The translations under genes were made by a program, and so were the position numbers. From Dictyostelium discoideum (taxonomy: Eukaryota), in assembly GCA_000004695.1 (NCBI GenBank), contig CM000150.2, forward strand, positions 96,001-160,000: a stretch of 64,000 nt of DNA. Direction: 5' to 3'. The notes beneath the pieces are model-generated. The model saw nothing but the letters and a program-made list of their open reading frames with translations, was not told the DNA's origin and did not search any database. Positions within the stretch are counted from its first letter, which is position 1. Each line of letters begins with the position of its first letter. This document shows, piece by piece, positions 25,853 to 57,528 of the stretch.

Positions 25853-25879
25853 AGCAAGGATATTATTATCTAAAATTGA

Positions 25880-26567
25880 TCATAGATACTCTAATTGAAC
25901 TTCAGCAGTACCATGGATGAGATACACCGGATTAATTACATTGTGGTAACTCATAATGGCTTCGATGTTATTTATAACATCTTGGGCTGAGTAGCAGTTA
26001 CGATGGTTAATAGCTTCGACTACTTTAGTATTGGCAGCTTCGTAGTCAGTTTTGAATGGAACCAAAGTCTTGGATCTAAAGTTACGGTGGATTAGCTTCT
26101 TCAATGTTTCACCTTCAATTTTATCGTTGTTCTTAACTGATTCATTGTGGGTAGGTTGAAGCAATTGAAATAATTCATTTGATGCAGCACCATTGTCCAC
26201 AATGGTCTTCAAGGTTGGTTCAACACCATTCTGGGAGCAGTGGATGGTAAAAAGATTCATGAAGATGACAGCAGTGGCAGCATTTTTTAAAGCATCAATG
26301 GTTTTAGCTTCAATGGAATTGGTCTTTGATTTCTTTGGCACTTTCTCTCTGACTTCGACGTCGGATACATCAGTGCTTTCAGTTGAAATAAATTTCATCA
26401 TCAACTTCAGTGGGACGAAGAGTCTTTTTTGATTTTACTTGAACAGTAATAGCATCATGGGAGGCGGTTGTCACTTCAGCGGCACGTTTGGCGGTGGAAG
26501 ACACTTTGGCTTTACGGATGGCTTTCTTTGAAGGAGTAGTAGTTGATGACATGACTTTCACCAACAA
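25880..26567 (-). CDS. Skipper-like gag capsid region (two overlapping ORFs)
   Basis: ORFs 26379-26567 and 25880-26404. Confidence 0.55.
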
Positions 26568-26714
26568 TTATATATAAAATTTATTAAATATAATTTAATT
26601 TTATAATTTAATTTTATAATTTAATTTACATAATTTAATTATATAATTTAATTTAATTTATTTAATTTAATTTAATTTAATTTTTAATTAAATAATTAAA
26701 TATAAGTATTAATA

Positions 26715-26950
26715 TATGTTAACTGTTATTCCACTAATATATTTTTATTGTGGTGTCTTTATATTATTTAATTGATAATAAATATTATCTTAAATTATTT
26801 TAATTATAACAATGCATCAATATAACTGTTATTCCACTAATAATTTATATTGTGGTGTATTTATTTAACTGTTATTCCACTAATAATTTATATTGTGGTG
26901 TCTTTATTTAACTGTTATTCCACTAATAATTTATAGTGGTGTCTTTGTAT
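26715..26950. repeat. ~40-bp tandem repeats (ACTGTTATTCCACTAATAATTTATATTGTGGTGTCTTTATTTA) in the Skipper-like 5' leader
   Basis: Four direct copies. Confidence 0.7.
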
Positions 26951-27713: not shown

Positions 27714-29940
27714 TTAATAAATTAAATTTTTAATTGATTGAGTTGGTTCGAGAACACTCTTTTCTAGATTTAACTTGAAACCTAGTTTGACAAGTAAGTC
27801 CATTGTCTTTTTGAGGTTGGATAAACATTCTTCTTTTGTTGAACCGACGATTAATAGATCGTCCAAGTAAGCGATGACGGATACTTTGATATCTCTCAAC
27901 ATTCGAAGTACAGGTCTTAACAGCATTGTAAAGATACGAGGAGCTGTCGATAACCCGAACGACATTGTTTTCCAACGGTAATGCGAACCTTTCCACAAGA
28001 AGCGGAATAAGTCTCTGTATTGCGGATCTACTAACACGTGGAGTAGGCTTTCTTGATATCGAGTTTTACCATGTAATAACCTTGTTTGACCATTGACGGT
28101 AGATTCTTGATTCCTTCCATCTTGAATGATTGGTTGTTGATGTAAGTGTTTAACCTTTTTAGATCGAGAACTGGACGATGTAGATTCGTTCCAGGTTTTG
28201 GAACCGTAAACACGTTGGAGTAAAAAACGCGCTTTGAATAACGGTTTGGAAGTACTTGTTCGATGGCATCGTCTAATAACAAGTCTTGTACTTCCTTTGT
28301 GATGCAATCTGATTTCGGACCCTCTGGAATTGAAATCGGAATTGGGTTTAGCATCGGCTTGAAGTTTGGAAGTAGATGGACTTTTAATCCATTTACGACC
28401 TCTTGACAAAAGTTTAGAAGACCCAATTCTTTCCAAACTTGTTTGTGGTGGAACAGACGTCCACCTACTGGTAAGTTTACTTCTTGTTCTTCTGAAAACG
28501 GTTGTTGGTACCGTTGGCAGACTTGGTATTGTTGCTACCTGATGCAACATTACTTGGTGATCCATTGAAGTTGTTAGATCGGCCATTACTCCCACTACTG
28601 GATTTACTATTACTACTGTTTCCTGTAGTGTTATTACCACTTGAGTTAACTGATTTCTTGACATTGGACTTGGAATGATAATTCAATTTTAACAATGATT
28701 GTTTTGCTTCGTTGTTCTTTCTGATTGATTTGGCTAGCTTTCTTACACGTTCAGTTTCAGTTTCATCAAACATCTTTGGTGTATTCTTGATCTTAATTGG
28801 TAAGAGTACTTCAGAACCATAGATTTCTTTAGCGATGTTGTTACGACGGACACGACTAAGCGATGCTTGAGCATTAACGGCTAAGACGATTGCACTCTGA
28901 GTTAAGTAACTAACAAGTTCTACATCGACAATAGAGCTATCAGATGATAACATACTTGACATGAGAAGCAAAGGTTTTAAGCTATCGTTGATTCGCTTTT
29001 CGACAATCAACAAGTCAGTATCATTGTTCTTGACGTTGGATGATACAGTAATACCTTCAGGTGTACCGAATGGAGCGACGTTCACTTGGAAGTTAGATGG
29101 AAAGTTGAATACTTTATTCAATTCGGATATCTCATCTTTCTTGAGGATACATTATTCTTCGACGAGTAAACCTTGATTGTTTACCATATGTTTGTACTGA
29201 CCAAGTAAGGTATCGGATAATTGATAATCGGTTGGAACATCGACATTGTTACTTGATTCATCTTCACTTTGTTCATTCTCAGTGTCAGAGTTATCATGAG
29301 AAGGTAGGCTACGTCTTAAATCAAAGGATTCAGCGCTATTAGAGGCAGAGGTACTACTACTAGAGGCATCATTATTATTAACAGTGGTAGACATTTTTTA
29401 TTGTTGATATCTAAAATTATAATATGAGAAAAATAATAATATTAAAAATTAATAAAGAGAAATAATTATTTGTATAAAATTTGTGTGTGTGTGTATCTTA
29501 AATATATATAGGAGGAATTCCCAAATAAAATAAATCAAATTGTTTTAGTTTTTAGTGCCACTATTTATACGTTTTTATTTTCTTAAAAATTTCGCAAAAC
29601 TCAAAAAAATAAGAGTTTTCGACCCTTCACAACTTTGTGCATAGTGTCGGTTCGGAATTTTTCGACCTTGCGCAATGATCGCGTCACTGTGCCGGTTCGA
29701 AATTTTTATTTTTCTTTCGAAAATTTTTTTTTTCTTCGAATGTTCTAGAACATTCTAAAAAATTATCTTAAATATTTGGGAAATTCAAATAAATAAATGT
29801 TATTCATAATATTAATATATATATGATAATATAAATCTTGGAATGTTTTAGAACATTCTAAAAAATTATCTTAAATATTTGGGAAATTCAAATAAATAAA
29901 TGTTATTCATAATATATATATATGATAAATTAAATTTACT
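27714..29940 (-). mobile_element. DIRS copy f: 5' ITR (29400-29940, partly duplicated), ORF1 with an internal deletion, N-terminal half of the RT ORF; truncated at 27714
   Basis: ORFs 28477-29121, 29152-29394, 28031-28426, 27714-28664. Confidence 0.8.
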
Positions 29941-29993
29941 AGAACGTTAGGGTTACGGATAGCATACTCAAATAACCAGCGAGTTTTCCCAGT

Positions 29994-30140
29994 TTAACGT
30001 GAGCCACTCAAGCCAATTGTAAACAACTCTCGTAACTGACATGCCTTAGTACCGCCAAGGTTATTAGCAGCGCTACGCTCATTATTAATCGCAATACTTT
30101 TCTCAATCGCATCATAATCGATGGTTGTCGTAGACGTCAT
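29994..30140 (-). CDS. Terminase-like gene N-terminal fragment (48 aa, uninterrupted here; cut downstream by the DIRS-f ITR)
   Basis: RBS atgaggtaaaaaatcATG; homolog of 2859-3108. Confidence 0.45.
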   Translation of the reverse strand: MTSTTTIDYDAIEKSIAINNERSAANNLGGTKACQLRELFTIGLSGSR

Positions 30141-30334
30141 GATTTTTTACCTCATTTATTTAGGTGGTTGTATGAACCCACATGGGTATAGTCCTCATAA
30201 ACAGGAGCTACTTTTGCTGGTAGACCAGGTGCATTAAGCATTGTTTTTAATACACGCTGACCACGCACATAAGGTTGGTTGCTAACATATTTTAAATCAG
30301 TTGCCACATAGCCTTTTGGAATTTCCATGGTAAA

Positions 30335-30520
30335 CTAATCCTCTAAATAGGTGACCAATGGCGGGTTTACTTCTACAACACTCAACCACGTAATGTTGGA
30401 AGTGCTTCGGTATTGTTCTTTTATTTTGAGATGCCATGCGGTTGATCGTGGTTTACTTACCCCAAAGTGTAAGTGTCGGTTATTTGCTGGCATACTTTCA
30501 GCCACTTCCCAAGTCTCCAA
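30335..30520 (-). CDS. Small phage-like gene (61 aa, TTG start); the island-A copy (3300-3480) carries an in-frame stop
   Basis: Stop overlaps the RBS of the next gene; paralog pseudogenised. Confidence 0.4.
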   Translation of the reverse strand: METWEVAESMPANNRHLHFGVSKPRSTAWHLKIKEQYRSTSNITWLSVVEVNPPLVTYLED

Positions 30521-31121
30521 TTCACCGCCGTCCTGCTATTAAGGGTGCCCAATGACGGACATCCATCTCAAAATAAAACTAGGAGGGGGTAAAACCCTCC
30601 TATATACTGATCTTACGGACGTGGTGATATCGAATACCACATTCTGTAATTTGGATCACACTGGGTGTTATTTACAATACCTAACGGACTGTATTTATCG
30701 TAGAAGGATCCCACTGTTGCGTTGCAATACCGTTAACAATCAACACTAAGCTGATTGTCCATACACTATTCTTCGTCGATGTATGATAAGGTAGGACAAT
30801 CCCATCAGCCGGTAGCTTATCCAATACAGCATCAACAATCAGCGCTTTGGACGGTGCTAAAATAAGGAACATCCGTTGTTAGCTTTGTTTTCCATATTTG
30901 GTTCACTGTCTTACAAACAAACCACCGGCATCTTTACCCTGCGTGTTACTAATAGGAATGGGGAAGGCATTCCTATTAGTAACACGCATAACTGACGTTT
31001 TCACTAGGGGCTAATACTAATTAATATTACCATGCCAGCTACGGTGTCAATCCAGTGTGTCAAATTAGTAACAGCTTTGGAGCCATCCAGATATGACGGA
31101 ACGCCTGGGCCTGAAATTTAA

Positions 31122-33577: not shown

Positions 33578-36491
33578 ACTTACCAGTAGGTGGACGTCTG
33601 TTCCACCACAAACAAGTTTGGAAAGAATTGGGTCTTCCAAACTTTTGTCAAGAGGTCGTAAATGGATTAAAAGTTCATCTACTTCCAAACTTCAAGCCGA
33701 TGCCAAACCCAATTCCGATTTCAATTCCAGAGGGTCCGAAATCAGATTGCATCACAAAGGAAGTACAAGACTTGTTATTAGACGATGCCATCGAACAAGT
33801 ACTTCCAAACCGTTATTCAAAGCGCGTTTTTTACTCCAACGTGTTTACGGTTCCAAAACCTGGAACGAATCTACATCGTCCAGTTCTCGATCTAAAAAGG
33901 TTAAACACTTACATCAACAACCAATCATTCAAGATGGAAGGAATCAAGAATCTACCATCAATGGTCAAACAAGGTTATTACATGGTAAAACTCGATATCA
34001 AGAAAGCTTACCTACACGTGTTAGTAGATCCACAATACAGAGACTTATTCCGCTTCGTGTGGAAAGGTTCGCACTACCGTTGGAAAACAATGCCGTTCGG
34101 GTTATCGACAGCTCCTCGTATCTTTACAATGCTGTTAAGACCTGCACTTCGAATGTTGAGAGATATCAACGTATCCGTCATCGCTTACTTGGACGATCTA
34201 TTAATCGTAGGTTCAACAAAAGAAGAATGTTTATCCAACCTCAAAAAGACAATGAACTTACTTGTCAAACTAGGTTTCAAGTTAAATCTAGAAAAGAGTG
34301 TTCTCGAACCAACTCAATCAATTACGTTTCTCGGATTACAAATCGATTCGGTATCAATGAAACTTCTTGTTCCCAAAGAAAAGAAGAAAAGTGTAATCAA
34401 GGAAATAAGAAACTTTTTAAAACTAGATTGTTGCTCCCCAAGAAAGCTTGCTGGTTTAAAAGGAAAGCTAATCGCACTGAAAGATGCAGTCATCCCATTC
34501 AGACTTTACACTCGTCGAACAAACAAGTTTCACTCTCAGTGTCTGACTCTAGCCAACGGAGATTGGGATCAATCATTCCCCATTCCTCAAGAGGTCAAGT
34601 CAGAGATTTCACATTGGTTAACAGTTCTAAACCAATGGAATGGAAAAGAAATCAGTCTGTTTCCAAGTTACGACTATGTTCTTACAACCGATGCCTCGGA
34701 ATCAGGTGCAGGTGCCACACTCAAGAAAGGAAACAAGGTAATCAAAACTTGGTCATTCCAGTGGTCAATAACTCAATCAAACATGTCGTCAAATCGTCGA
34801 GAAATGCTCGCGCTGCTAATGGCTTATCAAGCGCTATGTCGGAAACTGAACAACTGCAAGCTGAAGATTCAAACCGACAACACTACCACTCTCTCTTACA
34901 TCAATCGCCAGGGTGGTCAAATACAAGATCTCTCAGTTCTATTCGAACAACTTTGGAAACAATGCCTCAAGAAGAAAGTGAACTTAATTGGAGAGCATAT
35001 TCCAGGATTCTTCAATGTAAAAGCCGACCACCTCAGTCGTCTTTCAGAGATGAATCACAAATCATCGACCAGAGTAATCAAGAGTTACAACTGGCAACTG
35101 AAGAAGGAAGTGTTCAATCGCATTCAACTTCAATTCGGTCAAATACAGATGGATCTGTTCGCATCTCACCTGAACCATCAAACGAACAACTACTCAACAA
35201 TCAGAATGAATGCACTCCACCTCGATTGGAGTCAATGGAAGCAATGTCTGGCCTTCCCACCACCCATTCTTTTGCCTTCTATCCTGGAGAAGATGAACTC
35301 ATCCAGTTCGAAAAAGGTTTCTATAATACTGATCTTCCCAATCTGGAGATCAGCAACTTGGTATCCGATGATTCAAGCACAAGTTCCTCGTCATCATCGT
35401 CACATGTTTCCTCAAGTACTGGGAACATTCCAAGAAGTATTGACCAAACAATCAGTAGAGTCGATACCAATCCAGATTCAACAACGTTGGAAACTGGGGA
35501 TTATTCAACTTTCCAATCTCATGTAATGTCCTTCGCTCGTACAACAAATATAAAAACAGCTGAGCTGTTAATGAAGTCTTGGGAACCTTCCACTCTCAAA
35601 GTATATAGCTCCAGTTATACAAGATTCCGCAATTTCTGTACTTTGAACTCTTTGAATCCAGCAAACATTACCTTAGTTGTTTTCATGGATTATCTTACAC
35701 ATCTGTTCAAACACAAACCTCCGTTAGCCTTCTCAACAATTAACGGTCATCGCTCTATGTTGAACCAGTTGTTACTCCTTAGGAATCAAACTGATATTGT
35801 TAATGATCCATTCATCACAAGAATTATGACTGGTATTCACAAGTTGCGTCCTTCATCTGCAAAGTATAAAGAGATATGGGATGCAAACCAAGTATTCAAG
35901 CACTTATCTACTATCAAAGTTATCCCTAAGTACACATACACTGCGCTATTAAACAAGACACTTGTACTCTGTAAAATGTTTGGTTTAGCAAGATCATCAG
36001 ACTTGGTGAAGTGGTCGTTCAAAGGTCTCATTATTACTCCTGACTCAATCAAAGGTCCAGTTATCAATGCTAAAGAACAAAGAAGTGGTGTTGTTTCAAT
36101 CTTAGAATTAACATCGTTAGATGATACAAACTCTCAAGTATGCCCTGTTCGCCACCTTGCAACATACCTTAGAGCCTCAAAAGGAAGAAGAAAGCCCCAT
36201 TCGGGTGACTCTGTCTTTATTAAGAATGAGGGTGAACCACTCCAAGTTAATGATATTAACTCAATTGTATTATCAACGCTCTCAAAGTCAGGCATTGATA
36301 TTGTCAAGTTCAAATCTCACTCTACCCGTTCCGCTATGGCTTCTCTGCTGTTGTCCAATAACGTTCCGTTCCACGTTGTCAAGAAGATGGGTCGTTGGAA
36401 ATCAAACGATACTGTAGATACCTTCTACGATAAGAGAATCATTGGTGAAAAATCTGGTGGTTTCTTAAATACTGTCGTCCAAATTTCATAA
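33414..36491 (+). CDS. DIRS long overlapping ORF with C-terminal tyrosine recombinase (1025 aa)
   Basis: As in copy b. Confidence 0.8.
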   Translation: MVITLQETVVIVNPVVGVMADLTTSMDHQVVLHQVATIPSLQTVPTTVFRRTRSKLTSRWTSVPPQTSLERIGSSKLLSRGRKWIKSSSTSKLQADAKPNSDFNSRGSEIRLHHKGSTRLVIRRCHRTSTSKPLFKARFLLQRVYGSKTWNESTSSSSRSKKVKHLHQQPIIQDGRNQESTINGQTRLLHGKTRYQESLPTRVSRSTIQRLIPLRVERFALPLENNAVRVIDSSSYLYNAVKTCTSNVERYQRIRHRLLGRSINRRFNKRRMFIQPQKDNELTCQTRFQVKSRKECSRTNSINYVSRITNRFGINETSCSQRKEEKCNQGNKKLFKTRLLLPKKACWFKRKANRTERCSHPIQTLHSSNKQVSLSVSDSSQRRLGSIIPHSSRGQVRDFTLVNSSKPMEWKRNQSVSKLRLCSYNRCLGIRCRCHTQERKQGNQNLVIPVVNNSIKHVVKSSRNARAANGLSSAMSETEQLQAEDSNRQHYHSLLHQSPGWSNTRSLSSIRTTLETMPQEESELNWRAYSRILQCKSRPPQSSFRDESQIIDQSNQELQLATEEGSVQSHSTSIRSNTDGSVRISPEPSNEQLLNNQNECTPPRLESMEAMSGLPTTHSFAFYPGEDELIQFEKGFYNTDLPNLEISNLVSDDSSTSSSSSSSHVSSSTGNIPRSIDQTISRVDTNPDSTTLETGDYSTFQSHVMSFARTTNIKTAELLMKSWEPSTLKVYSSSYTRFRNFCTLNSLNPANITLVVFMDYLTHLFKHKPPLAFSTINGHRSMLNQLLLLRNQTDIVNDPFITRIMTGIHKLRPSSAKYKEIWDANQVFKHLSTIKVIPKYTYTALLNKTLVLCKMFGLARSSDLVKWSFKGLIITPDSIKGPVINAKEQRSGVVSILELTSLDDTNSQVCPVRHLATYLRASKGRRKPHSGDSVFIKNEGEPLQVNDINSIVLSTLSKSGIDIVKFKSHSTRSAMASLLLSNNVPFHVVKKMGRWKSNDTVDTFYDKRIIGEKSGGFLNTVVQIS
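33628..35526 (+). CDS. DIRS RT / RNase H (632 aa)
   Basis: YLDDLLIVG; TDASESGAG. Confidence 0.85.
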   Translation: MGLPNFCQEVVNGLKVHLLPNFKPMPNPIPISIPEGPKSDCITKEVQDLLLDDAIEQVLPNRYSKRVFYSNVFTVPKPGTNLHRPVLDLKRLNTYINNQSFKMEGIKNLPSMVKQGYYMVKLDIKKAYLHVLVDPQYRDLFRFVWKGSHYRWKTMPFGLSTAPRIFTMLLRPALRMLRDINVSVIAYLDDLLIVGSTKEECLSNLKKTMNLLVKLGFKLNLEKSVLEPTQSITFLGLQIDSVSMKLLVPKEKKKSVIKEIRNFLKLDCCSPRKLAGLKGKLIALKDAVIPFRLYTRRTNKFHSQCLTLANGDWDQSFPIPQEVKSEISHWLTVLNQWNGKEISLFPSYDYVLTTDASESGAGATLKKGNKVIKTWSFQWSITQSNMSSNRREMLALLMAYQALCRKLNNCKLKIQTDNTTTLSYINRQGGQIQDLSVLFEQLWKQCLKKKVNLIGEHIPGFFNVKADHLSRLSEMNHKSSTRVIKSYNWQLKKEVFNRIQLQFGQIQMDLFASHLNHQTNNYSTIRMNALHLDWSQWKQCLAFPPPILLPSILEKMNSSSSKKVSIILIFPIWRSATWYPMIQAQVPRHHRHMFPQVLGTFQEVLTKQSVESIPIQIQQRWKLGIIQLSNLM

Positions 36492-36945: not shown

Positions 36946-39900
36946 GTATGTGTACTTAGGGATGACTTTGATAGTAGATAAGTGCTTGAATACTTGATTT
37001 GCATCCCATATCTCTTTATACTTTGCTGATGAAGGGCGCAACTTGTGAATACCAGTCATAATTCTTGTAATGAATGGATCATTAACAATATCAGTTTGAT
37101 TCCTAAGGAGTAACAACTGATTCAACATAGAGCGATGACCGTTAATTGTTGAGAAGGCTAACGGAGGTTTGTGCTTGAACAGATGTGTAAGATAATCCAT
37201 GAAAACAACTAAGGTAATGTTTGCTGGATTCAAAGAGTTCAAAGTACAGAAATTGCGGAATCTTGTATAACTGGAGCTATATACTTTGAGAGTTGAAGGT
37301 TCCCAAGACTTCATTAACAGCTCAGCTGTTTTTGTATTTGTTGTACGAGCGAATGACATTACATGAGATTGGAAAGTTGAATAATCCCCAGCTTCCAACG
37401 TTGTTGAATCTGGATTGGTATCGACTCTACTGATTGTTTGGTCAATACTTCTTGGAATGTTCCCAGTATTTGAGGAAACATGTGACGATGATGACGAGGA
37501 ACTTGAGCTTGAATCATCGGATACCAAGTTGCTGATCTCCAGATTGGGAAGATCAGTATTATAGAAACCTTCTTCGAACTGGATGAATTCATCTTCTCCA
37601 GGATAGAAGGCAAAAGAATGGGTGGTGGGAAGGCTAGACATTGCTTCCATTGACTCCAATCGAGGTGGAGTGCATTCATTCTGATTGTTGAGTAGTTGTT
37701 CGTTTGATGGTTGAGATGAGATGCGAACAGATCCATCTGTATTTGACCGAATTGGAGTTGGATGCGATTGAACACTTCCTTCTTCAGTTGCCAGTTGTAA
37801 CTCTTGATTACTCTGGTCGATGATTTGTGATTCATCTCTGAAAGACGACTGAGGTAGTCGGCTTTTACATTGAAGAATCCTGGAATATGCTCTCCAATCA
37901 AGTTCACTTTCTTCTTGAGGCATTGTTTCCATAGTTGTTCGAATAGAACTGAGAGATCCTGTATCTGACCACCCTGGCGATTGATGTAAGAGAGAGTGGT
38001 AGTGTTGTCGGTTTGAATCTTCAGCTTGCAGTTGTTCAGTTTCCGACATAGCGCTTGATAGGCCATTAGCAGCGCGAGCATTTCTCGACGATTTGACGAC
38101 ATGTTTGATTGAGTTGTTGACCACTGGAATGACCAAGTTTTGATTACCTTGTTTCCTTTCTTGAGTGTGGCACCTGCACCTGATTCCGAGGCATCGGTTG
38201 TAAGAACATAGTCGTAACTTGGAAACAGACTGATTTCTTTTCCATTCCATTGGTTTAGAACTGTTAACCAATGTGAAATCTCTGACTTGACCTCTTGAGG
38301 AATGGGGAATGATTGATCCCAATCTCCATTGGCTAGAGTCAGACACTGAGAGTGAAACTTGTTTGTTCGACGAGTGTAAAGTCTGAATGGGATGACTGCA
38401 TCTTTCAGTGCGATTAACTTTCCTTTTAAACCAGCAAGCTTTCTTGGGGAGCAACAATCTAGTTTTAAAAAGTTTCTTATTTCTTTGATGACACTTTTCT
38501 TCTTTTCTTTGGGAACAAGAAGCTTCATTGATACCGAATCGATTTGTAATCCGAGAAAAGTAATTGATTGAGTTGGTTCGAGAACACTCTTTTCTAGATT
38601 TAACTTGAAGCCTAGTTTGACAAGTAAGTCCATAGTCTTTTTGAGGTTGGATAAACATTCTTCTTTTGTTGAACCGACGATTAATAGATCGTCCAAGTAA
38701 GCGATGACGGATACGTTGATATCTCTCAACATTCGAAGTACAGGTCTTAGCAGCATTGTAAAGATACGAGGAGCTGTCGATAACCCGAATGGCATTGTTT
38801 TCCAACGGTAGTGCGAACCTTTCCACACGAAGCGGAATAAGTCTCTGTATTGTGGGTCTACTAACACGTGGAGGTAGGCTTTCTTGATATCGAGTTTTAC
38901 CATGTAATAACCTTGTTTGACCATTGACGGTAGATTCTTGATTCCTTCCATCTTGAATGATTGGTTGTTGATGAAGGTGTTTAACCTTTTTAAATCTAGA
39001 ACTGGACGATGTAGATTCGTTCCAGGTTTTGGAACCGTAAACACGTTGGAGTAAAAAACGCGCTTTGAATAACGGTTTGGAAGTACTTGTTCGATAGCAT
39101 CGTCTAATAACAAGTCTTGTACTTCCTTTGTGATGCAATCTGATTTGGGACCCTCTGGAATTGAAATCGGAATTGGGTTTAGCATCGGCTTGAAATTTGG
39201 AAGCAGATGGACTTTTAATCCATTTACGACCTCTTGACAAAAGTTTGGAAGACCCAATTCTTTCCAAACTTGTTTGTGGTTGAACAGACGTCCACCTACT
39301 GGTAAGTTTACTTCTTGTTCTTCTGAAAACGGTTGTTGGTACCGTTGGCAGACTTGGTATTGTTGCTACCTGATGCAACATTACTTGGTGATCCATTGAA
39401 GTTGTTAGATCGGCCATTACTCCCACTACTGGATTTACTATTGCTACTGTTTCCTGTAGTGTTATTACCACTTGAGTTAACTGATTTCTTGACATTGGAC
39501 TTGGAATGATAATTCAATTTTAACAATGATTGTTTAGCTTCGTTGTTCTTTCTGATTGACTTGGCTAGCTTTCTTACACGTTCAGTTTCAGTTTCATCAA
39601 ACATCTTTGGTGTATCCTTGATCTTAATTGGTAAGAGTACTTCAGAACCATAGATTTCTTTAGCGATGTTGTTACGACGGACACGACTAAGCGATGCTTG
39701 AGCATTAACGGCTAAGACGATTGCACTCTGAGTTAAATAACTAATAAGTTCTACATCGACATTAGAGCTATCAGATGATAACATACTTGACATGAGAAGC
39801 AAAGGTTTTAAGCTATCGTTGATTCGCTTTTCGACAATCAACAAGTCAGTATCATTGTTCTTGACGTTGGATGATACAGTAATACCTTCAGGTGTACCGA

Positions 39901-40752: not shown

Positions 40753-42267
40753 AAGACTGATCAATACCCATCACTAATTTACCATTAGGGCAGGGGATCT
40801 CACGGATACTAGATTGCGCAAAACTTCCCGTATTCTCATCAATAAGAAGATATGTGGTGATTGTATCCACAGTGGGGGCTGGGATGGTCCCAATGCCGTG
40901 TTCCAGGCCTGATAAAACTTATCAGAATTAGAACCGCCATCTTGCACAACTATCGCTGGTGTTAATGTAGCAGCCGCAACAAACAACCCTTGATCAAATT
41001 TTAATCTATTTCCTGCCTTCGCACTAATACGCACATCTCAACTATCGGAAGCAGGACCCGCCATCATATTTAAAATGATAGGTGTGCCGCCATCTTCCAT
41101 GTACGCTATGAGTGTTGCGTTCTGAATTGTAGGACCTAGTGCACCATTACCGTAAGCTTGAATGAACTGGCCCTTAGGGGTAGGAATACCGTTATCGCGC
41201 CTGGAGCTGATAATATTTCGTTGTCCGTAACATCCTGTTTCGTGTAAGCCGTGTGAGTAGCCACTGATACTTTGGGTGCTGTAAAGACGTCTTTCACAAT
41301 GTCATTAATCTCTGCAGCGGTCACAACACCGCCCTGGATAACTTCCTCTATGTCTGGTAATCCTCCGTTACCACCACCACCGCCCGCTAATGCGATTATA
41401 TCGCCTAACGTTGCTTTCCTTAAGGCTAATCGTCCATCTTCATTTAGTTGGGAAATCGCAACAATCTCCTGACCCGTTATAGTTTGAGCTGCTGGTAATG
41501 TAGAAAATTTAACAGCCATAATAACGCTCCATAATTCAACCGATTTAAATGCTAAAATATCAATATATTGCAATGGTCAAAGCATGGGGTTTTATAGGAG
41601 CCCTACTAGACTCTCTCGTTTAAACTTTATACACTACTTATTATTATTGATTTAAAAATGAGTGCAGGACTCATTAAGGCTTGCACAGGGAATTGAACCC
41701 CAATCCACGTTATCGTTGGTGGCTCTAGGCCGCTGTGAGCTACATACATTCTGTCAGAAAGGTAACCTACGTCCCTCCAACTTTAACGCACTCTATTGTT
41801 GAGCTATACAAGCATAACATAAATGACCCAGCCTCGCAGTATTTATTACATTCGCAGCGGCGATGCACGCCTAACCACACAGTTTATGAACCCACTAGAT
41901 TATCAGATCCCGACTGGAAGTTTTGTCACGAACTCTATTGTAGGGTAATTAATCCTACGGTCAAGCCGTCTACCAATTAGTTAAGTACCTAGTAAATGTT
42001 CAACGATTAAGACATCATCCTCTGGACTCAGTCCGTATCTGTTCTTTGCGTGTCTGGCTATTACTGGCTTATTTGTTTGCAGTGGGTCTTTGCTATCATC
42101 GCTGAGACTTGGATGATAAAAATACCAACCAAGTCTTGTTCACCGCTCCACGTATAAGGGGAAAATATTGTCTCCTCAAGACAGCCCGAAGGTAGTCGGT
42201 GGCTAACCACAGCCCAACTCACCTTTTGCTCAGGATTTACCCTAAAAGGCTATTAACTTTATAACCT
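40753..42267. other. Prokaryote/phage-like island D
   Basis: GC-rich; gene with a GGAG RBS; degenerate tRNA-like stretch at about 41660-41760. Confidence 0.65.
41136..41519 (-). CDS. Phage-like structural-type protein (127 aa, MAVKFSTLPAAQTITGQEIVAISQLNEDGRLALRKATLGDIIALAGGGGGNGGLPDIEEV...)
   Basis: RBS ttatGGAGcgttattATG; Gly-rich central loop; function not recognisable. Confidence 0.4.
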   Translation of the reverse strand: MAVKFSTLPAAQTITGQEIVAISQLNEDGRLALRKATLGDIIALAGGGGGNGGLPDIEEVIQGGVVTAAEINDIVKDVFTAPKVSVATHTAYTKQDVTDNEILSAPGAITVFLPLRASSFKLTVMVH

Positions 42268-47971: not shown

Positions 47972-48740
47972 TGACTGATCGGAAAGTCAGCATCGCTAGA
48001 ATGGTAGATTGTCGTTGAGATGCAGGGCGTAAAGCCCAGCTATTGGCAAAGATGTAAGCGGCTTAAGAGCCCCTAATTAGTATCCGCGGTCACGGCCGCA
48101 CATCCTAGCCTATGGGCTCACACCAATGCGTAATATGGTAGCAAAAATCATGTCAGATGAAGACATCCCAGATCATGATACCCGTACATGGTATTGTCTC
48201 CAGTATCCAATAACCTCAATCTGCCATCAAACCAAATTATAATATTTAAAAAAAAAAATTTGAATCTCAAAAATCATTTTCTAGATCTGAAAAAACCCAC
48301 TTAAATTATTATTAAATTACTATTTTTTTTAATAATTTAGTAAATAGATATTTTAAGTCATAAATTAAGCGATAAAATCTATTTTTTTGGTTAACCAGCA
48401 TAGTCTAGGTGTTTATCTATTTAATATGTTTTTTGTGGATAATAAAGCATATTTCAATCACTAATGATATTTATTAAATTTATTAAATTTGTTTATTTTT
48501 TTTTTCCGTGATGGAAAATGGTAAGACCATTAGTTCGTTCTGCATTGCCCATTACATCACCACTTCTTACATGTCAGCGTCTGGTGAAGTTACGCTGGGT
48601 GATGCAGCCGATAAAGAGACACAGTTCGCTATTAACTCGACTGGATCGATTAATATGTAAGCGCCACGTTTTGTTCTGAAGGGTATTCGGGATGAGAGAA
48701 CACCTGTTTTTGAATGCTCATGAATTATCCAGCATAGTAT

Positions 48741-48989
48741 GTGGAATTCTATAGACCCTATTACCAGAAATACGACCACGGAAGATCTTGGTTCGCAACG
48801 CGTTTGCTGAAGTGGTTCACACACAACTATCCAACAGCGGTGATTGATGTGGTTAAGTCCGTGGCCCTGGTTCTTGTTAAACATCGCGATTTGATTGGTA
48901 ACCCATCATTCATTGACACAGAGTGGTTTTTGGATGGTGAGTGTTTGCGTCATCTTAATAACGCACTGGTCATGGAAAACGAACCGGTT
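48741..48989 (+). CDS. Phage-like gene truncated by insertion of DIRS copy l
   Basis: ORF 48741-49025 reads from GC-rich sequence into the ITR. Confidence 0.35.
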
Positions 48990-51900
48990 TATTTATATTA
49001 TCATATATATATATATATATTATGAATAACATTTATTTATTTGAATTTCCCAAATATTTAAGATAATTTTTTAGAATGTTCTAGAACATTCGAAGAATAA
49101 AAAAAATTTTCCAAAGAAAAGTAAAAATTTCGACCCGGCACAATGATGCGATAATTGTGCAAGGTCGAAAAACTGAAAAATTCGGAACCGACACTATGTA
49201 CAAAGTTGTGAAGGGTCGAAAACTCTTATTTTTTTGAGTTTTGCGAAATTTTTAAGAAAATAAAAACGTATAAATAGTGGCACTAAAAACTAAAACAATT
49301 TGATTTATTTTATTTGGGAATTCCTCCTATATATATTTAAGATACACACACACACAAATTTTATACAAATATTTATTTCTCTTTATTAATTTTTTATATT
49401 ATTATTTTTCTCATATTATAATTTTAGATATCAACAATAAAATATGTCTACCACTGTTAATAATAATGATGCCTCTAGTAGTAGTGCCTCTGCCTCTAAT
49501 AGCGCTGAATCCTTTGATTTAAGAATAAAATCAATGGAGGATCAAATCAACAACCTTTCTTTAGCCTTTACAAGATTCATGAAAGAACCTATTTTCTCAT
49601 CTAATTCCAATTCACGTAGCCAACCTTCTCATGATAACTCTGACACCGAGAATGAACAAAGTGAAGATGAATCAAGTAACAATGTCGATGTTCCAACCGA
49701 TTATCAATTATCCGATACCTTACTTGGTCAGTACAAACATATGGTAAACAATCAAGGTTTACTCGTCGAAGGAATCAAGAATCTACCATCAATGGTCAAA
49801 CAAGGTTATTACATGGTAAAACTCGATATCAAGAAAGCCTACCTCCACGTTTTAGTAGATCCGCAATACAGAGACTTATTCCGCTTCGTGTGGAAAGGTT
49901 CGCACTACCGTTGGAAAACAATGCCGTTCGGGTTATCGACAGCTCATCGTATCTTTACAATGTTGTTAAGACCTGTACTTCGAATGTTGAGAGATATCAA
50001 CGTATCCGTCATCGCTTACTTGGACGATCTATTAATCGTCGGTTCAACAAAAGAAGAATGTTTATCCAACCTCAAAAAGACGATGGACTTACTTATCAAA
50101 CTAGGTTTCAAGTTAAATCTAGAAAAGAGTGTTCTCGAACCAACTCAATCAATTACGTTTCTCGGATTACAAATCGATTCAAAATCAATGAAGCTTCTTG
50201 TTCCCAAAGAAAAGAAGAAAAGTGTCATCAAGGAAATAAGAAACTTTTTAAAACTAGATTGTTGCTCCCCAAGAAAGCTTGCTGGTTTAAAAGGAAAGCT
50301 AATTGCACTGAAAGATGCAGTTATCCCATTCAGACTTTACACTCGTCGAACAAACAAGTTTCACTCTCAGTGTCTGACTCTAGCCAATGGAGATTGGGAT
50401 CAATCATTCCACATTCCTCAAGATGTCAAGTCAGAGATTTCACATTGGTTAACAGTTCTAAACCAATGGAATGGAAAAGAAATCAGTCTGTTTCCAAGTT
50501 ACGACTATGTTCTTACAACCGATGCCTCGGAATCAGGTGCAGGTGCCACACTCAAGAAAGGAAGCAAAGTAATCAAAACTTGGTCATTCCAGTGGTCAAT
50601 AACTCAATCAAACATGTCGTCAAATCGTCGAGAAATGCTCGCGCTGCTGATGGCCTATCAAGCGCTATGTCAGAAACTGAACAACTGCAAGCTGAAGATT
50701 CAAACCGACAACACTACCACTCTCTCTTACATCAATCGCCAGGGTGGTCAGATACAGGATCTCTCAGTTCTGTTCGAACAACTTTGGAAACAATGCCTCA
50801 AGAAGAAAGTGAACTTGATTGGAGAGCATATTCCAGGATTCTTCAATGTAAAAGCCGACCACCTCAGTCGTCTTTCAGAGATGAATCACAAATCATCGTC
50901 CAGAGTAATCAAGAGTTACAACTGGCAACTGAAGAAGGAAGTGTTCAATCGCATCCAACTTCAATTCGGTCAAATACAGATGGATCTGTTCGCATCTCAC
51001 TTCAACCATCAAACGAACAACTACTCAACAATCAGAATGAATGCACTCCACCTCGATTGGAGTCAATGGAAGCAATGTCTGGCCTTTCCACCACCCATTC
51101 TTTTGCCTTCTATCCTGGAGAAGATGAACTCATCCAGTTCGAAGAAGGTTTCTATAATACTGATCTTCCCAATCTGGAGATCAGCAACTTGGTATCCGAT
51201 GATTCAAGCTCAAGTTCCTCGTCATCATCGTCACATGTTTCCTCAAGTACTGGGAACATTCCAAGAAGTATTGACCAAACAATCAGTAGAGTCGATACCA
51301 ATCCAGATTCAACAACGTTGGAAGCTGGGGATTATTCAACTTTCCAATCTCATGTAATGTCCTTCGCTCGTACTACAAATACAAAAACAGCTGAGCTGTT
51401 AATGAAGTCATGGGAACCTTCAACTCTCAAAGTATATAGCTCCAGTTATACAAGATTCCGCAATTTCTGTACGTTGAACTCTTTGAATCCAGCAAACATA
51501 ACCTTAGTTGTTTTCATGGATTATCTTACACATCTGTTCAAGCACAAACCTCCGTTAGCCTTCTCAACAATTAACGGTCATCGCTCTATGTTGAATCAGT
51601 TGTTACTCCTTAGGAATCAAACTGATATTGTTAATGATCCATTCATCACAAGAATTATGACTGGTATTCACAAGTTGCGTCCTTCATCTGCAAAGTATAA
51701 AGAGATATGGGATGCAAATCAAGTATTCAAGCACTTATCTACTGTCAAAGTCATCCCTAAGTACACATACACTGCGCTATTAAACAAGACACTTGTACTC
51801 TGTAAAATGTTTGGTTTAGCAAGATCATCAGACTTGGTGAAGTGGTCGTTCAAAGGTCTCATTATTACTACTGACTCAATCAAAGGTCCAGTCATTAATG

Positions 51901-52782
51901 CTAAAGAACAAAGAAGTGGTGTTGTTTCAATATTAGAATTAACTTCGTTAGATGATACAAACTCTCAAGTGTGCCCTGTTCGCCACCTTGCAACATACCT
52001 TAGAGCCTCTAAAGGAAGAAGAAAGCCCCATTCGGGTGACCCTGTCTTTATTAAGAATGAGGGTGAACCGCTCCAAGTTAATGATATTAACTCAATTGTA
52101 CTATCAACGCTCTCAAAGTCAGGCATTGATATTGTCAAGTTCAAATCTCACTCTACCCGTTCCGCTATGGCTTCTCTGCTGTTGTCCAATAACGTTCCGT
52201 TCCACGTTGTCAAGAAGATGGGTCGTTGGAAATCAAACGATACTGTAGATTCCTTCTACGATAAAAGAATCATTGGTGAAAAATCTGGTGGTTTCTTAAA
52301 TACTGTCGTCCAAATTTCATAATATATATATATATATGATAATATAAATTAAAAATTTAATTTATTAAATTATATTTTATATTAAATATATATATATATA
52401 TTAGTCCCATCCCACCCGCCCTTAGTCGGAATTCCATAAATCAAATTGTTTTAGTTTTTATTGCCACTATTTATACGTTTTTATTTTCTTAAAAATTTCG
52501 CAAAACTCAAAAAAATAAGTGTTTTCGACCCTTCACAACTTTGTGCATAGTTTCGGTTCAGAATTTTTCAGTTTTTCGACCTTGTGCAATGATCGCGTCA
52601 TTGTGCCGGTTCGAAATTTTTACTTTTCTTTCGAAAATTTTTTTTATTCTTCGAATGTTCTAGAACATTCTAAAAAATTATCTTAAATATTTGGGAAATT
52701 CAAATAAATAAATGTTATTCATAATATATATATATATATTTAATATAAAATATAATTTAATAAATTAAATTTGTAATTAAAC
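48990..52782 (+). mobile_element. DIRS copy l: both ITRs; internal deletion fusing ORF1 in frame to RT (637-aa ORF 49444-51357); recombinase ORF 49890-52322 intact
   Basis: LLVEE|GIKNLPSMVKQ junction compared with copy b. Confidence 0.85.
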
Positions 52783-53313
52783 AGAACCCTGAGACGTATG
52801 TGGTCTACCAGAAGGTATCAAATGTAGCAAATCGCGTGCTTTAGAACAATCGCATGTATTCGGTGTGTTATGTATTCCAACGTACCATACCCGTAATCAT
52901 TCGTTTGGTTTCAAATATGTGTTGGTATCGAAGAACCTACAGCGTCTTCAACCAGGTGAGCACCTTGCGGCGGGGGACAATTTTTGCACACTCCCCTAAT
53001 TTGACAGAGGGCGGTGACTAAATACGGGTGTGAAACTAACGTGTGTTTCATGTCACTACCAGAAGTCGAACAGGATGGAATGATTGCTACGGAATCATTC
53101 GTTAATGCCATGGCGTGTGATAAGATGGAGAGTCGTTTATTGCAATGGGGTGAGAACAATGTACTTGTTAAACAACTACAAACCTTATCCAGTGATCGGG
53201 GAACAAATTCGGGATGATGGTTTTTTATTCGCAATGCGCAATATCGAATCTGATGTTGGTCTGGTCAACATGACTGCGAAAGCATTGATGGAAGTGGATG
53301 TCATCTTGGATAA

Positions 53314-53835
53314 ATGCGTGTACGGCGACCTAGTGCAACGGTAATCAACATTACCATCAAGTCCAACCGCCTGCGTACAGGTCGTTCAGAAGTTCAGTTC
53401 TATGATAAACAATCCGACCCCTATGAAAAAGCAGACCGTGACTTTCCTATCAATCTGCGTGGTGTGTATGAAACATTATTGAGTCGTCACCCACATACCT
53501 TAATGTTAGAGCCTAGTCTGAACACTTTGGTCAATAATGCCATATCTGATACCGGTGGTTTGGATCGTCGAATGAATGCCCAAACTGGTGCAATCTTGGC
53601 GATGGATAAAGGTGTTCAGATCTATAACAAGTTCCTATCGGCTACTGGCGTGCTTAGATCTCTTTTGTTAAATGCATTGTGGCAGGTGTGCGTTTCAAGA
53701 TCTCTGACAGTCATGAGGGTAAAGGTGTTATCGTTCATGTCTTTAAAGATGAAGATGCACCGACATGGCGTGCGTACAGATGTCATCGTGGATAACGCCT
53801 CTATCACTAAAACTCTATTGAACAGTTTGAGTTGA
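53314..53835 (+). CDS. Phage-like hypothetical protein (173 aa); upstream frames 53014-53344 look like frameshifted parts of the same gene
   Basis: ORF track; overlapping stop/start with the next gene. Confidence 0.35.
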   Translation: MRVRRPSATVINITIKSNRLRTGRSEVQFYDKQSDPYEKADRDFPINLRGVYETLLSRHPHTLMLEPSLNTLVNNAISDTGGLDRRMNAQTGAILAMDKGVQIYNKFLSATGVLRSLLLNALWQVCVSRSLTVMRVKVLSFMSLKMKMHRHGVRTDVIVDNASITKTLLNSLS

Positions 53836-54452
53836 TGTCCAACAGTCCTATCTATCAGTCCAAAGCAAACCGTGATCATCATGTGAGCTGGGTGATTGAA
53901 CATGAAGTAGAGCTGCTAGCGTTAACTGATCGCTTGTATTATGGGGCAGAGCAGATTCTTCGCATTAAGAAGAACCATGACTTCCCAACATATCCTGCTC
54001 GTTATCGAGCACCTTATGGGAGGTTTGTGATAACTCGTGATCCAGTAATGATTGTACCAGTGTATATCATCCTGTTGGAAAAGATGAGGGAATATTTGGT
54101 TTCCTATGCAGTGCCTAAGTTAATGCACTTCGGTACTTTATCTATTATTACTCAAGTAGACAAGTACGCCCTCCCTTGGCGTAATGTACCAACTCGTTTG
54201 GCTGGTGAGTCAGACATTCGTCTGTTCTGGCGGCTGGTACACAAACCGTCTATTATCATTGCCAATACACCGGCAATGCAGAAAGCAGTAGGTAAGTTAT
54301 TGCGTCATGAGAATCCAATGCGTATTGACAATTTGATGGATGAAAGTGTATCTCCACTAGGTCGTAATCGACCAGTGCAGATGTATAAACACATGCAAGC
54401 TTGTCGTGGTATTCGCTTTGAACGTCAATTGTTAACTGAAGGGGCCGCTTAA
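53835..54452 (+). CDS. Phage-like hypothetical protein (about 205 aa)
   Basis: ATG at 53835 overlaps the TGA of the upstream ORF. Confidence 0.4.
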   Translation: MSNSPIYQSKANRDHHVSWVIEHEVELLALTDRLYYGAEQILRIKKNHDFPTYPARYRAPYGRFVITRDPVMIVPVYIILLEKMREYLVSYAVPKLMHFGTLSIITQVDKYALPWRNVPTRLAGESDIRLFWRLVHKPSIIIANTPAMQKAVGKLLRHENPMRIDNLMDESVSPLGRNRPVQMYKHMQACRGIRFERQLLTEGAA

Positions 54453-54474
54453 AGCAGATCGGCAAGATTTGCTA

Positions 54475-55059
54475 ATGAATGGAGAGCAGATCTGGTCGTT
54501 AGATCCTCAGTGTAATAATCCTAAAGTTCAGGTTCTCGCTGAGGATAAAACTTTTGAGATGTTGGTGCGTCCTCTGATAGCCAGCTGGCCAATTCAGAAG
54601 TTCCAAGAAGGGATGGCTCTGGGTAAGCGGCATTTCTTAACAGGGTTCCGCATTTCAAACAAAGGTATCCGTAACATACTGACCGAAGGGTATCGTGACT
54701 ACGATATGATCATTGTACAACTAATGGGCACTGATCTGACCGGTGGGTTCATCGATGTAGTGAAATTTAACTCATTACAAGCCCGTACCATTAACCATAT
54801 CAACAACGCCTTTGTTGCAAGAATTCCTGAATATGTCACTACTGCAAGTATGGTTGACTATTTAGAGATTCTATTATTCGTCAAGTTCGAGCAGGTCTGG
54901 TTTAGTTCCAGAAATCTATCGGCTAGGCTTATAAGAAAGGACTGGGCCATATCAAAAACCCTGATAAATTTCCAAAGAATCAAATCGCTGAGGATATCAA
55001 ACAAGGCGGTGTTTCCGATGGCCAGACTGCTCAGGTGTTTATCTCATGTGGTTACCTAA
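54475..55059 (+). CDS. Phage-like hypothetical protein (about 194 aa)
   Basis: ORF track; ATG 23 bp after the previous stop. Confidence 0.35.
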   Translation: MNGEQIWSLDPQCNNPKVQVLAEDKTFEMLVRPLIASWPIQKFQEGMALGKRHFLTGFRISNKGIRNILTEGYRDYDMIIVQLMGTDLTGGFIDVVKFNSLQARTINHINNAFVARIPEYVTTASMVDYLEILLFVKFEQVWFSSRNLSARLIRKDWAISKTLINFQRIKSLRISNKAVFPMARLLRCLSHVVT

Positions 55060-55990
55060 CCGACCATAACTCCAGGATCTTTGTTCGTCCTGTTACGGTC
55101 AAGGTATTGGTAGCTTCTATGAAGCCTTTGTTGAATCACATTCTGCTACTGAGGCCATGATCTTTACCAAGAAACCATTGGAGGATTCAGAATGGTTTAA
55201 CCGTAAGTTACAATTGGTCGGTTAGGCCATACAGCGCGTCCATCTTGGTGAGGATTGAGGTACTCAAATTACAGTACCGGTAATAATGCGTCCAGGCTGG
55301 TCCGGTGTAATGGCGGGTAAGTATTACGTAGACGACAGTGGTCAGATGTAAGCCATTCATGAGAAAGATGAAGGTAAACTGCTGCGTATAAGGTCACTAA
55401 TGTATTGTCAGCATAAATATCGTTCGGGTGTTTATGAGCGCTGTTATGGTAAGTTGGCTATGTCGATCCCGTATTTCAACGTACTGGGCAAGATAGGGAA
55501 AAACGAAGCCATTGCTGGGCACGTGTCCGCAACAGAATTTGATGCTGCTTTATAACAGAAGATGTTGTCCACTAAACACCTGGATACTTCTTCTACGGTG
55601 GATCCGTTTATCATTCATCGTGAAGATGCAATTTATATAACGTGTGGTATTCGTGATAATACTGCTGGTTTAAACCTACGACTGAAAGGGCAGAATGTAG
55701 CCAGATGACGTAGGGATTGTGCTTGATCAGTTCTTAGAGTTACTTAACCGACTTCTACAGGTGAATATCGTTCATGCTGAAATGATTCTGTACTCGGTAA
55801 TGGTGCGTGACCCAAGCAAGTTGGATCATTGCTTACCGCGCGCTAACGAACAACGGCAGTTTAGTTCTTATCACGAATGTATCGAATTCCCCAGTCTTTT
55901 GGTGCAGTTGCTGTATCAAGAGCAAGCGGATGTTATGATGAAACCCATGACGTTCTTAATTGATAACCGTCAGTCACATCGGCAGATAGA

Positions 55991-56083
55991 TTATATTACC
56001 CATCTGTTCAAGCACAAACCTCCGTTAGCCTTCTCAACAATTAACGGTCATCGATCAATGTTGAATCAGTTGTTACTCCTTAG
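55991..56083 (+). mobile_element. ~93-bp fragment of the DIRS recombinase ORF (…HLFKHKPPLAFSTINGHRSMLNQLLLL…) embedded in phage-like island E
   Basis: Near-identity to DIRS sequence; shares the ttcaaGcac variant with the adjacent copy l. Confidence 0.7.
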
Positions 56084-56110
56084 TATCTTTGCAGACTAAG
56101 GGGTAGGGCG

Positions 56111-56506
56111 ATGCGCACTACGGCAACGCTTATCATTGGTAATCATGGATTTACGGTTAAAGACTACAATGATGAGTTCTACAGTAAGGCAAGGGCGTAC
56201 TGCGCACGTTTCGTTAAATACCGGATTGAATCTAAGGTCGTCCAAGGACGGAGATCTTTTGTCAAGGTACCAGATCGTGTATTCGGCTCAGCTTCGAAGG
56301 ACCGTAAAGAGCTACACATTAACTGTTTAGCTGAATTTAAACAATTTATGTTGAATAGTGGTTGGAACCCTGAACGGTTCAAAGAAATCACCAGGGAATT
56401 ACCTGAGGGACGAGATGTCAATTCCAATGACCACCAGGTTGCAGTACCAGTTAGAGAAAGATCCTTCTGGTATCACGACCCGAATCAATACATTGCAAAC
56501 GGGTAA
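56111..56506 (+). CDS. Phage-like hypothetical protein (131 aa)
   Basis: ORF track. Confidence 0.35.
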   Translation: MRTTATLIIGNHGFTVKDYNDEFYSKARAYCARFVKYRIESKVVQGRRSFVKVPDRVFGSASKDRKELHINCLAEFKQFMLNSGWNPERFKEITRELPEGRDVNSNDHQVAVPVRERSFWYHDPNQYIANG

Positions 56507-56615
56507 AGGAAAGACATTCTATGCCATATACAACATGTTCAAACTGCAGAAGCTCACTGGCATTATGTTAATGCCGAAGTACATCACGACTTGGCATACT
56601 GGCTTACATGACTTT

Positions 56616-57334
56616 CACAGCGAAGAAAAAACCACCTTTAAAGCAAATTTAAAGCAAATTTGATTTAAATTGGATTTAAATTGAATTTAAAGCCGCGTTT
56701 AAAAAATTCATTTTTAAGGTAATTTTTAAGGTAATTTTTAAGATATTTAAAAATGCCTTTAAAATTTGCTTTAAATTAAATTTTTAAGCAATTTTTAAGG
56801 TAATTTTTAAGGTGATTTTTAAGATAATTTTAAGATATTTTAAAAATACCTTTAAAATTTATTTTAAAGTAATTTTAAAGAAGATTAAAAGTAGATTTAA
56901 AGTGAATTTAAATTTCCTTTAAACATAAATTTAAGGTTTTTAATAAAAAAGATCTAGTTTTAGAACAAAAAAATGGTGATAAAATATTCTATCATTTTTA
57001 AATTTTTCATCAAAGCAATCAAATGGTGTAATGGTTGATGAGACTATCCTTTGATAGAGGGTCGGGGGATCGAATCCCTTTTGGTAATTTTTGAAAAAAT
57101 TAAAAAAAAAATTTAAAAAATTTATCCGTTAAATAACGGCTTCGAACTCAGGACCTCGCTTTTAAAGCGATTAAAAAGGTAATTTTAAAGGTAATTTTAA
57201 AGGTAATTTTAAAGGTAATTTTAAAGTAACCTTAAAAATTACCTTTAAAATTACCTTTAAAATTGCTTTAATTCAGGACTTTAAAGCAAATTTAAATTTA
57301 AAGCGAATTTAAAGGTGGTTTTTTCTTCGCTGTG
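56616..57334 (+). mobile_element. TIR hairpin element, complete (B-end to A-end)
   Basis: CACAGCGAAGAAAAAACCACC ... GGTGGTTTTTTCTTCGCTGTG; tRNA-like hairpin core 57020-57100. Confidence 0.75.
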
Positions 57335-57528
57335 AAAAGATAATAATTTAATAAACTTTAAATGTTTTTTGAAAAAACACATTTAGGGTCAGTGATTTTT
57401 TTTTTCACTGCGCTACTGTAGTGAAATTAAATAATAAAATTAACTACGCTACTGTAGTGAAATTTTATTGAAAATTCCCTACAACAATTTGGTTTGGTTG
57501 AGTGAAAATTTGTAATATCATCTTGTTT

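Follow-up and report, generated by a model that had tools for sequence, protein, structure and literature searches.

In the stretch of Dictyostelium discoideum chromosome 1 analysed here (64,000 nt; contig CM000150.2, positions 96,001 to 160,000 of the forward strand; hereafter the window), we find a 94-nt piece of the retrotransposon DIRS-1 embedded in resident, already non-functional sequence derived from a jumbo phage, and we consider it probable, at roughly 70%, that this piece is a patch left by error-prone double-strand-break repair. The piece is an exact insertion, it lacks the element termini, it diverges from every DIRS copy in the window, and the phage DNA that hosts it is decayed and has been colonised by host transposons. 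An exact insert with neither terminal repeats nor poly-A, and with at most 1-3 nt of microhomology, is the signature of repair capture or templated insertion at a double-strand break, and the patch is most likely an ordinary break-repair scar. The double-strand break as trigger, and the route by which the DNA was supplied, are what we infer from this anatomy.

The DIRS-derived stretch is present at 55989-56083 on the forward strand, where an earlier sequence-only reading had set its limits at 55991-56083. BLAST carries the DIRS match leftward to 55986 at the cost of one mismatch, the core assignable only to DIRS comprises 94 nt (55990-56083), and G55989 can be assigned to phage or to DIRS. The stretch matches the tyrosine-recombinase ORF of DIRS-1 in six copies of the window with about 92-96% identity and E values of 1e-33 to 1e-40. 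The patch and its matches are as follows:

55989..56083, + strand: the patch, a micro-fragment internal to DIRS-1, taken from the SAM-like N-terminal domain region of its tyrosine-recombinase ORF, delimited by alignment to the DIRS copies of the window
51519..51613, + strand: match in the adjacent DIRS copy, 95.8% (4/95 mismatches); candidate donor site, lying 4.4 kb upstream and oriented like the patch
37103..37197, - strand (aligned as 37197-37103): match in a second DIRS copy, 95.8% (4/95 mismatches); candidate donor site in the opposite orientation, 18.8 kb away, carrying the G of the ttcaaGcac variant
20134-20228: match in a DIRS copy, 93.7%
35688-35782: match in a DIRS copy, 93.7%
11341-11435: match in a DIRS copy, 92.6%
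16736-16796: match in a DIRS copy, truncated

The chance expectation for a 17-mer taken from the patch is 0.00 matches, and when the patch and its flanks were aligned with the six DIRS copies in a seven-way alignment, all similarity was lost abruptly outside 55986-56083. In the adjacent copy the segment corresponds to about residues 544-575 of ORF 49890-52322, which contains a Phage_integrase domain (E 7e-9) together with weak SAM-like N-terminal matches at residues 504-572, so that its designation as a recombinase-gene fragment is correct. It occupies positions 2530-2627 of this 3795-bp copy, far from both terminal repeats. The earlier judgement that the fragment is too short for insertion by the element's own machinery agrees well with these results, as it is an internal piece without inverted terminal repeats and the other DIRS matches in the window are large copies that include pieces of the terminal repeats. 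The fragment lies, as had been stated, in frame within ORF 55719-56099, and the frame is identical to that of the recombinase, its translation being DYITHLFKHKPPLAFSTINGHRSMLNQLLLLS versus DYLTHLF...LLLLR in DIRS. The search for further fragments of this kind, which had been recommended, detected no second DIRS or transposon micro-fragment across the approximately 10 kb of phage-like DNA in the window, and we therefore regard the patch as a single event.

The DNA that received the patch (52782-56612) is a decayed module comprising the nvRNAP beta, nvRNAP beta' and SWI/SNF-type helicase genes, collinear with the Agricanvirus Erwinia phages AH06, RAY and Ea35-70. With a GC content of about 0.43-0.44 it stands out from the amoeba DNA on either side (0.2), and tblastn with AH06 proteins recovered residues 94-701 of beta, 7-648 of beta' and 1-182 of the helicase. 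That a DIRS recombinase-gene fragment sits inside phage-like DNA is thus confirmed both by the BLAST matches to six copies and by the collinearity of its flanks with AH06 and RAY. The block and its boundaries consist of the following features:

48987..52781, + strand: DIRS-1 copy with both terminal repeats, its right terminus, which is intact, abutting the left end of the phage block
52782..54452, + strand: nvRNAP beta pseudogene (about residues 94-701 of AH06 gp267 / RAY gp248) with three frame changes and several in-frame stops
54460..55988, + strand: nvRNAP beta' pseudogene upstream of the patch (AH06 gp268 / RAY gp249) with frame changes, stops and a 1-nt deletion near 55980
55699..55701, + strand: breakpoint of an internal beta' deletion of about 393 bp or about 131 codons (AH06 residues 425-555 missing), without filler, located by tblastn
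56084..56110, + strand: last beta' codons (IFAD*, compare IFVD* in L009/L013) and intergenic spacer, the phage sequence resuming directly after the patch
56111..56612, + strand: SWI/SNF-type helicase N-terminus pseudogene (about residues 1-182), with a frameshift near 56437, cut by an AT-rich repeat
56613..57337, no strand assigned: about 0.7 kb of AT-rich repeat bearing terminal inverted repeats, present many times in the window, at which the phage block ends on the right

The decay of the block is evident from its seven or more frame changes, its numerous in-frame stops, the loss of about 393 bp and the truncation of either end, and it lacks the intact translatable genes expected of a live phage or a contaminant. 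The deletion at 55699-55701 is a second rearrangement scar in the gene that bears the patch. The AT-rich repeat on the right looks like a putative DDT-type DNA transposon. On the left, the DIRS copy at 48987-52781 is internally deleted, since about 1 kb carried by other copies between reference positions 782 and 806 is absent from it; a simple insertion of this copy into the beta gene was considered and rejected, because the DNA to its left (48009-48986) is not the beta N-terminus. Searches of INPHARED (tblastn), IMG/VR and JGI metagenomes returned no relative closer than 72% amino acid identity over 93 residues, Pfam gave no matches for the ORFs of the phage block, and PHROGs gave only a weak helicase match for ORF 56111-56506. 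The only match to the block in the homologue search was an AX4 reference protein, DDB_G0267346 (206 aa, about 55290-56520), which is stitched together from pieces of the beta' and helicase pseudogenes. A GT-AG intron predicted at about 55970-56166 takes out the DIRS patch together with the phage intergenic spacer, and the gene model is almost certainly spurious.

The phage DNA in the window is a resident fossil and not a contaminant. The window lineage has changed at 123 of the 781 sites that are invariant among five phages, and at these sites GC>AT changes are 2.2 times as frequent per site as AT>GC changes, an excess that fits decay in an AT-rich genome. When compared by tblastx with the whole AH06 genome, the main block corresponds to 208.9-213.3 kb and a second phage piece, at 2889-5026 on the minus strand, to 170.7-172.5 kb. 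This second piece is split precisely, inside the homologue of AH06_217, by a 634-bp AT-rich repeat (4131-4764), all but about 9 nt of the phage gene being accounted for. The repeat has terminal inverted repeats (ACAGCAAAGAAAAATCCAC...), more than 10 copies in the window, one of them the repeat that cuts the right end of the main block, and collinear phage flanks, and it is probably a DDT-type DNA transposon, though a putative one. Moreover, a phage segment is duplicated in the same orientation (2885-3641 versus 29925-30674, with 10 gaps); because its two copies are only 88.4% identical, compared with 97-98% for DIRS copies, the duplication is old and was made after integration. We hold it to be highly probable that several pieces of one Chimalliviridae-type jumbo-phage genome reside in the chromosome 1 centromere, where they have been pseudogenised, shifted towards AT, duplicated, invaded by transposons and patched with DIRS-1, and that they arrived by phage-to-amoeba transfer, presumably via ingested infected prey. 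A search of the literature for links between Dictyostelium and jumbo phages, phiKZ or Agricanvirus, or for mention of DDB_G0267346, found nothing relevant. The paper that describes the manual reconstruction of the chromosome 1 centromere does not mention phage DNA (PMC2665215).

Several other features of the window bear the same foreign stamp or accompany it. A 90-nt tRNA-Leu(UAA) gene at 5158-5247 on the minus strand (ARAGORN; Rfam tRNA, 50.7 bits) lies within a GC-rich phage-like block. It is 76-86% identical to jumbo-phage tRNA genes and is likely to be phage-derived; AH06 itself lacks a tRNA at the matching position. PMC2665215 notes two 'centromere 1 tRNA genes', of which this is probably one. 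In the first phage-like block, two minus-strand ORF remnants have PHROG matches: 4766-5095 to phrog_1491 ('tail fiber protein', E 6e-15), and 2862-3077 to phrog_2586, a family of unknown function (E 3e-8). Unique blocks with a GC content of 0.37-0.44 (amoeba background about 0.2) occur at 40762-42260, 48009-48986, 6895-7380, 30675-31114 and 2616-2884 and hold broken, bacterial- or phage-looking ORFs, for example 41139-41576 on the minus strand (MAVKFSTLPAAQTITGQEIV...). None of these five blocks has a match in AH06, and 40762-42260 and 48738-48986, together with ORF 41139-41576, found no match in the phage collection as DNA or as protein; their source may be non-conserved regions of the same phage. 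A near-perfect palindrome at 5335-6016 has 326-nt arms that are 98% complementary and lie 30 nt apart, each arm joining phage-like DNA to one half of a roughly 130-bp MITE-like repeat (5611-5740), and it looks like a fold-back or inverted-duplication repair product. At 21291-26718, on the minus strand, there is a Ty3/gypsy-type retroelement with long RT/RNase H/integrase ORFs, single-copy in the window and probably Skipper.

With 55990-56083 removed, the window aligns with nine phage relatives (AH06, RAY, L009 and L011-L016) across the beta' tail, its stop codon, the spacer and the helicase start, and the sole gap in this alignment is 1 nt, about 10 nt upstream. Because the excised sequence aligns without a gap at the site itself, the event was an exact addition of 94 nt with no flank loss; a short insert between collinear flanks, with a loss of 0-15 nt, is what characterises templated insertions, and here the nine relatives show no gap at the site. 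The site reads ...CGGCAGATAG^TATCTTTGCAGACTAA, where L009 and L013 have CCAGCCGACAG^CATCTTTGTTGACTGA, and the junction letters are GATAG^ATTAT...CCTTAG^TATC. At the left junction the acceptor has ATAG and the donor ATGG before ATTAT, which amounts to the terminal G or to a microhomology of 3/4 nt. The right junction has no microhomology besides the TAG that ends both flank and patch, and these 3 coinciding nt belong to the DIRS sequence of every copy. An uncertainty of 1-3 nt attaches to the microhomology calls, since the pre-insertion sequence was reconstructed from phages that are only about 62% identical to it in nucleotides. Two phage tail types, one AH06-like and one L009-like, underlie the junction analysis, as no closer phage relative exists in INPHARED, IMG/VR or the JGI metagenomes, and the window resembles the L009-like type. 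Microhomologies of 6 nt (ATGGAT) and 4 nt (AATC), suggested by the AH06 tail, were dropped because the tail of the L009/L013 type aligned better and left the excised sequence gapless. Neither a poly-A/T tract nor a target-site duplication of the retrotransposition type was found at the patch, again as in templated insertions, and no terminal-repeat homology was found at or near 55986-56083.

The reading frame is kept only because the separate 1-nt deletion near 55980, about 10 nt upstream, offsets the 94-nt insertion to give a net change of +93. The in-frame status is incidental, as the host is a heavily decayed pseudogene with seven other frameshifts, and the patch is without function, its ORF being a pseudogene remnant. 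The junctions are those of the AX4 reference assembly alone; exact-product look-ups with six ORFs or gene models of the phage block gave no match in other assemblies.

It had been proposed that the fragment matches the neighbouring DIRS copy specifically, on the grounds that the ttcaaGcac variant occurs only there. This is contradicted by the alignment, in which G at 56012 is present in two of the six window copies that cover the position: the inverted copy also carries it (37166-37182, minus strand) and equals the adjacent copy in similarity to the patch. The patch differs from each of these two best copies at 4 of 95 positions, and all four differences are transversions. Three substitutions are private to the patch (55995 C>A, 56000 A>C, 56057 T>A), and A at 56054 is common, among the six window copies, only to the patch and the copy at 11341. 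The variant pattern is therefore a mosaic, and no window copy has that combination; nor was a donor bearing the private variants found among the six window DIRS copies that cover the segment, copies which differ from one another by about 2-3% (97-98% alike). The nearest possible donor for a templated insertion among the window copies is the adjacent one, 4.4 kb upstream in the same orientation. It is possible that it served as donor, and because it ties with the inverted copy 18.8 kb away, the donor is not assignable. The private substitutions and the variant shared with 11341 speak against a specific match to the neighbour, and the diagnostic G, being common to the inverted copy, no longer marks the adjacent copy as template. 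Judged by these variants, the donor could be a nearby copy, a distant copy or a DIRS cDNA, with no single copy singled out. The private variants may reflect a donor elsewhere in the genome, where centromere 1 alone contains about 81 kb of DIRS sequence (PMC2665215), or they may have accrued after insertion, and in the latter case the patch would be roughly as old as typical DIRS copies, or older.

If the patch is a repair scar, the break would have separated ...GCAGATAG from TATCTTTG..., about 5 codons short of the nvRNAP beta' pseudogene's stop, and 94 nt of DIRS-1 recombinase-ORF sequence would have been added before the ends were rejoined. The broken 3' end may have primed on a DIRS-1 template through 1-3 nt of microhomology, copied it and disengaged, which would be the synthesis-dependent course known as 'repair-mediated duplication', or else a free fragment of DIRS-1 DNA or cDNA may have been ligated in by end-joining capture. 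The microhomology appears weaker than is typical of synthesis-dependent events, and these two routes and template switching during replication would be expected to leave the same sequence. As a single example (n = 1), the patch gives neither a rate nor a pathway. From the earlier suggestion of local template switching or gene conversion during repair, repair-associated copying or capture survives as the best account, whereas gene conversion lacks the homologous flanks that it needs and the link to the adjacent copy does not hold.

Replication-based template switching of the FoSTeS/MMBIR type, in which a stalled or collapsed fork would have copied about 94 nt from the DIRS copy 4.4 kb upstream and switched back, corresponds in essence to the local template switching suggested earlier and is rather unlikely. 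The closeness, the same orientation and the G variant of that copy suit it well, as do the short insertion, the minimal junction homology and the exact resumption of the phage sequence. However, break-repair synthesis is expected to produce the same sequence, the adjacent copy is no closer to the patch than the inverted one 18.8 kb away, and the A at 56054 is common only to a third copy. Gene conversion involving a DIRS copy and the phage-derived DNA is scarcely credible. It has the physical proximity of the DIRS copies as its sole support, but it requires homologous flanks, of which there are none beyond 1-3 nt, and it replaces a homologous tract, whereas here 94 nt were added; we reject it because the flanking homology is absent.

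The chimeric read or assembly join that had also been raised is improbable. Assembly of the highly repetitive chromosome 1 centromere from shotgun reads was manual (PMC2665215), and the exact-product and homologue look-ups found no independent sequence of the locus, both of which would fit a cloning, sequencing or assembly artefact. Yet a chimera makes one junction, and here there are two, with the phage sequence resuming at the next nucleotide. At 94 nt the piece falls short of the length of a Sanger read, and its surroundings are unique sequence, so that a repeat-driven misjoin is neither needed nor possible; it is identical to none of the six window DIRS copies that cover the segment, with at least 4 differences from each; and the phage DNA around it bears the marks of a long stay in the genome. 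Still more improbable is that a complete, element-mediated DIRS-1 insertion was whittled down by later deletions. Centromeric DIRS elements are indeed highly fragmented by later events (PMC2665215), and the same phage gene has undergone the 393-bp deletion. Such a history, however, calls for two or more deletions, all of which would have had to stop precisely at the insertion point without the loss of a phage nucleotide, and this coincidence is why we reject it; moreover, no terminal-repeat trace is left, and DIRS-1 prefers existing DIRS copies as targets (PMC5633606). An element-mediated DIRS-1 insertion as such was likewise rejected, as the piece has no inverted terminal repeats, consists of 94-95 nt of one ORF and lies in a phage-derived target. 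Native phage sequence was rejected because nine phage relatives lack the patch.

Break repair thus remains our preferred reading, and the patch would mean that templated or captured insertions occur in Dictyostelium centromeric DNA. It would also mean that internal DIRS-1 fragments can spread without transposition, which bears on the counting of DIRS 'fragments' as transposition events. Since the host is foreign DNA with living phage relatives, the state before insertion can be reconstructed to the nucleotide, which is rarely possible in a centromere. If the phage-derived sequence is a neutral fossil with external homologues, as it seems to be, it would record break repair in this genome, including a possible use of DIRS-1 cDNA as a patch. 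Repair patches are a well-known class, so that the patch itself is of modest interest, and the more notable feature is the phage fossil that hosts it. If its origin is as we propose, it would rank among the few documented instances in which DNA of a lytic jumbo phage has become fixed in a eukaryotic chromosome.

The phage block is like the Agricanvirus members of the Chimalliviridae (AH06, RAY and Ea35-70) in keeping the order of the three genes at about 62-67% nucleotide identity. It is unlike them in lying in a eukaryotic chromosome, truncated at both ends, with frameshifts, stops, a deletion and insertions of host transposons, and in its GC content of 0.43 versus 0.46-0.54 in the phages. 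Canonical DIRS-1 retrotransposition is thought to proceed by integration of a circular cDNA with inverted LTRs at its ends (PMC5633606). The patch has in common with it the DIRS-1 origin and the location in a DIRS-rich centromere, but it has neither inverted terminal repeats nor the internal complementary region, represents 94 nt of a 4.8-kb element, and lies in a target that is not a DIRS copy.

As an internal retroelement fragment without termini and with little or no homology at its ends, the patch is like the end-joining capture of cDNA or filler DNA. In yeast, Ty1 cDNA is reportedly captured at double-strand breaks (Moore & Haber 1996; Teng et al. 1996). Comparable cases are reportedly NUMT-mediated repair (PMC2567098) and the capture of linear fragments in yeast (PMC1976456). 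According to Boesler et al. 2014 (cited in PMC5633606), DIRS-1 produces extrachromosomal cDNA; circular DIRS-1 cDNA has been demonstrated in an agnA knockout only, and post-transcriptional silencing normally acts on DIRS-1. Compared with these capture systems, the sequence of the patch fits a cDNA source and a chromosomal source alike.

In humans, proximal repair-mediated duplications reach at most 619 bp, their median being 147 bp, and their donors lie less than 5 kb away (Pace, Sen, Batzer & Feschotte 2009, PMC2671141); they show 2-9 nt of microhomology, deletions of 1-15 nt and no poly-A, and are attributed to synthesis-dependent strand annealing (PMC2671141). The patch differs from them in that its donor is a multi-copy retrotransposon, which makes the donor not assignable, in that its microhomology of at most 1-3 nt is at the low end of their range, in that its acceptor is phage-derived DNA in an amoeba centromere, and in that distant phage homologues stand in for an orthologous empty site. 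It is like them in being short (94 nt), in interrupting a collinear sequence without poly-A or target-site duplication, in having a possible donor less than 5 kb away on the same chromosome, and in combining little or no flank loss with a junction microhomology that is short at best.
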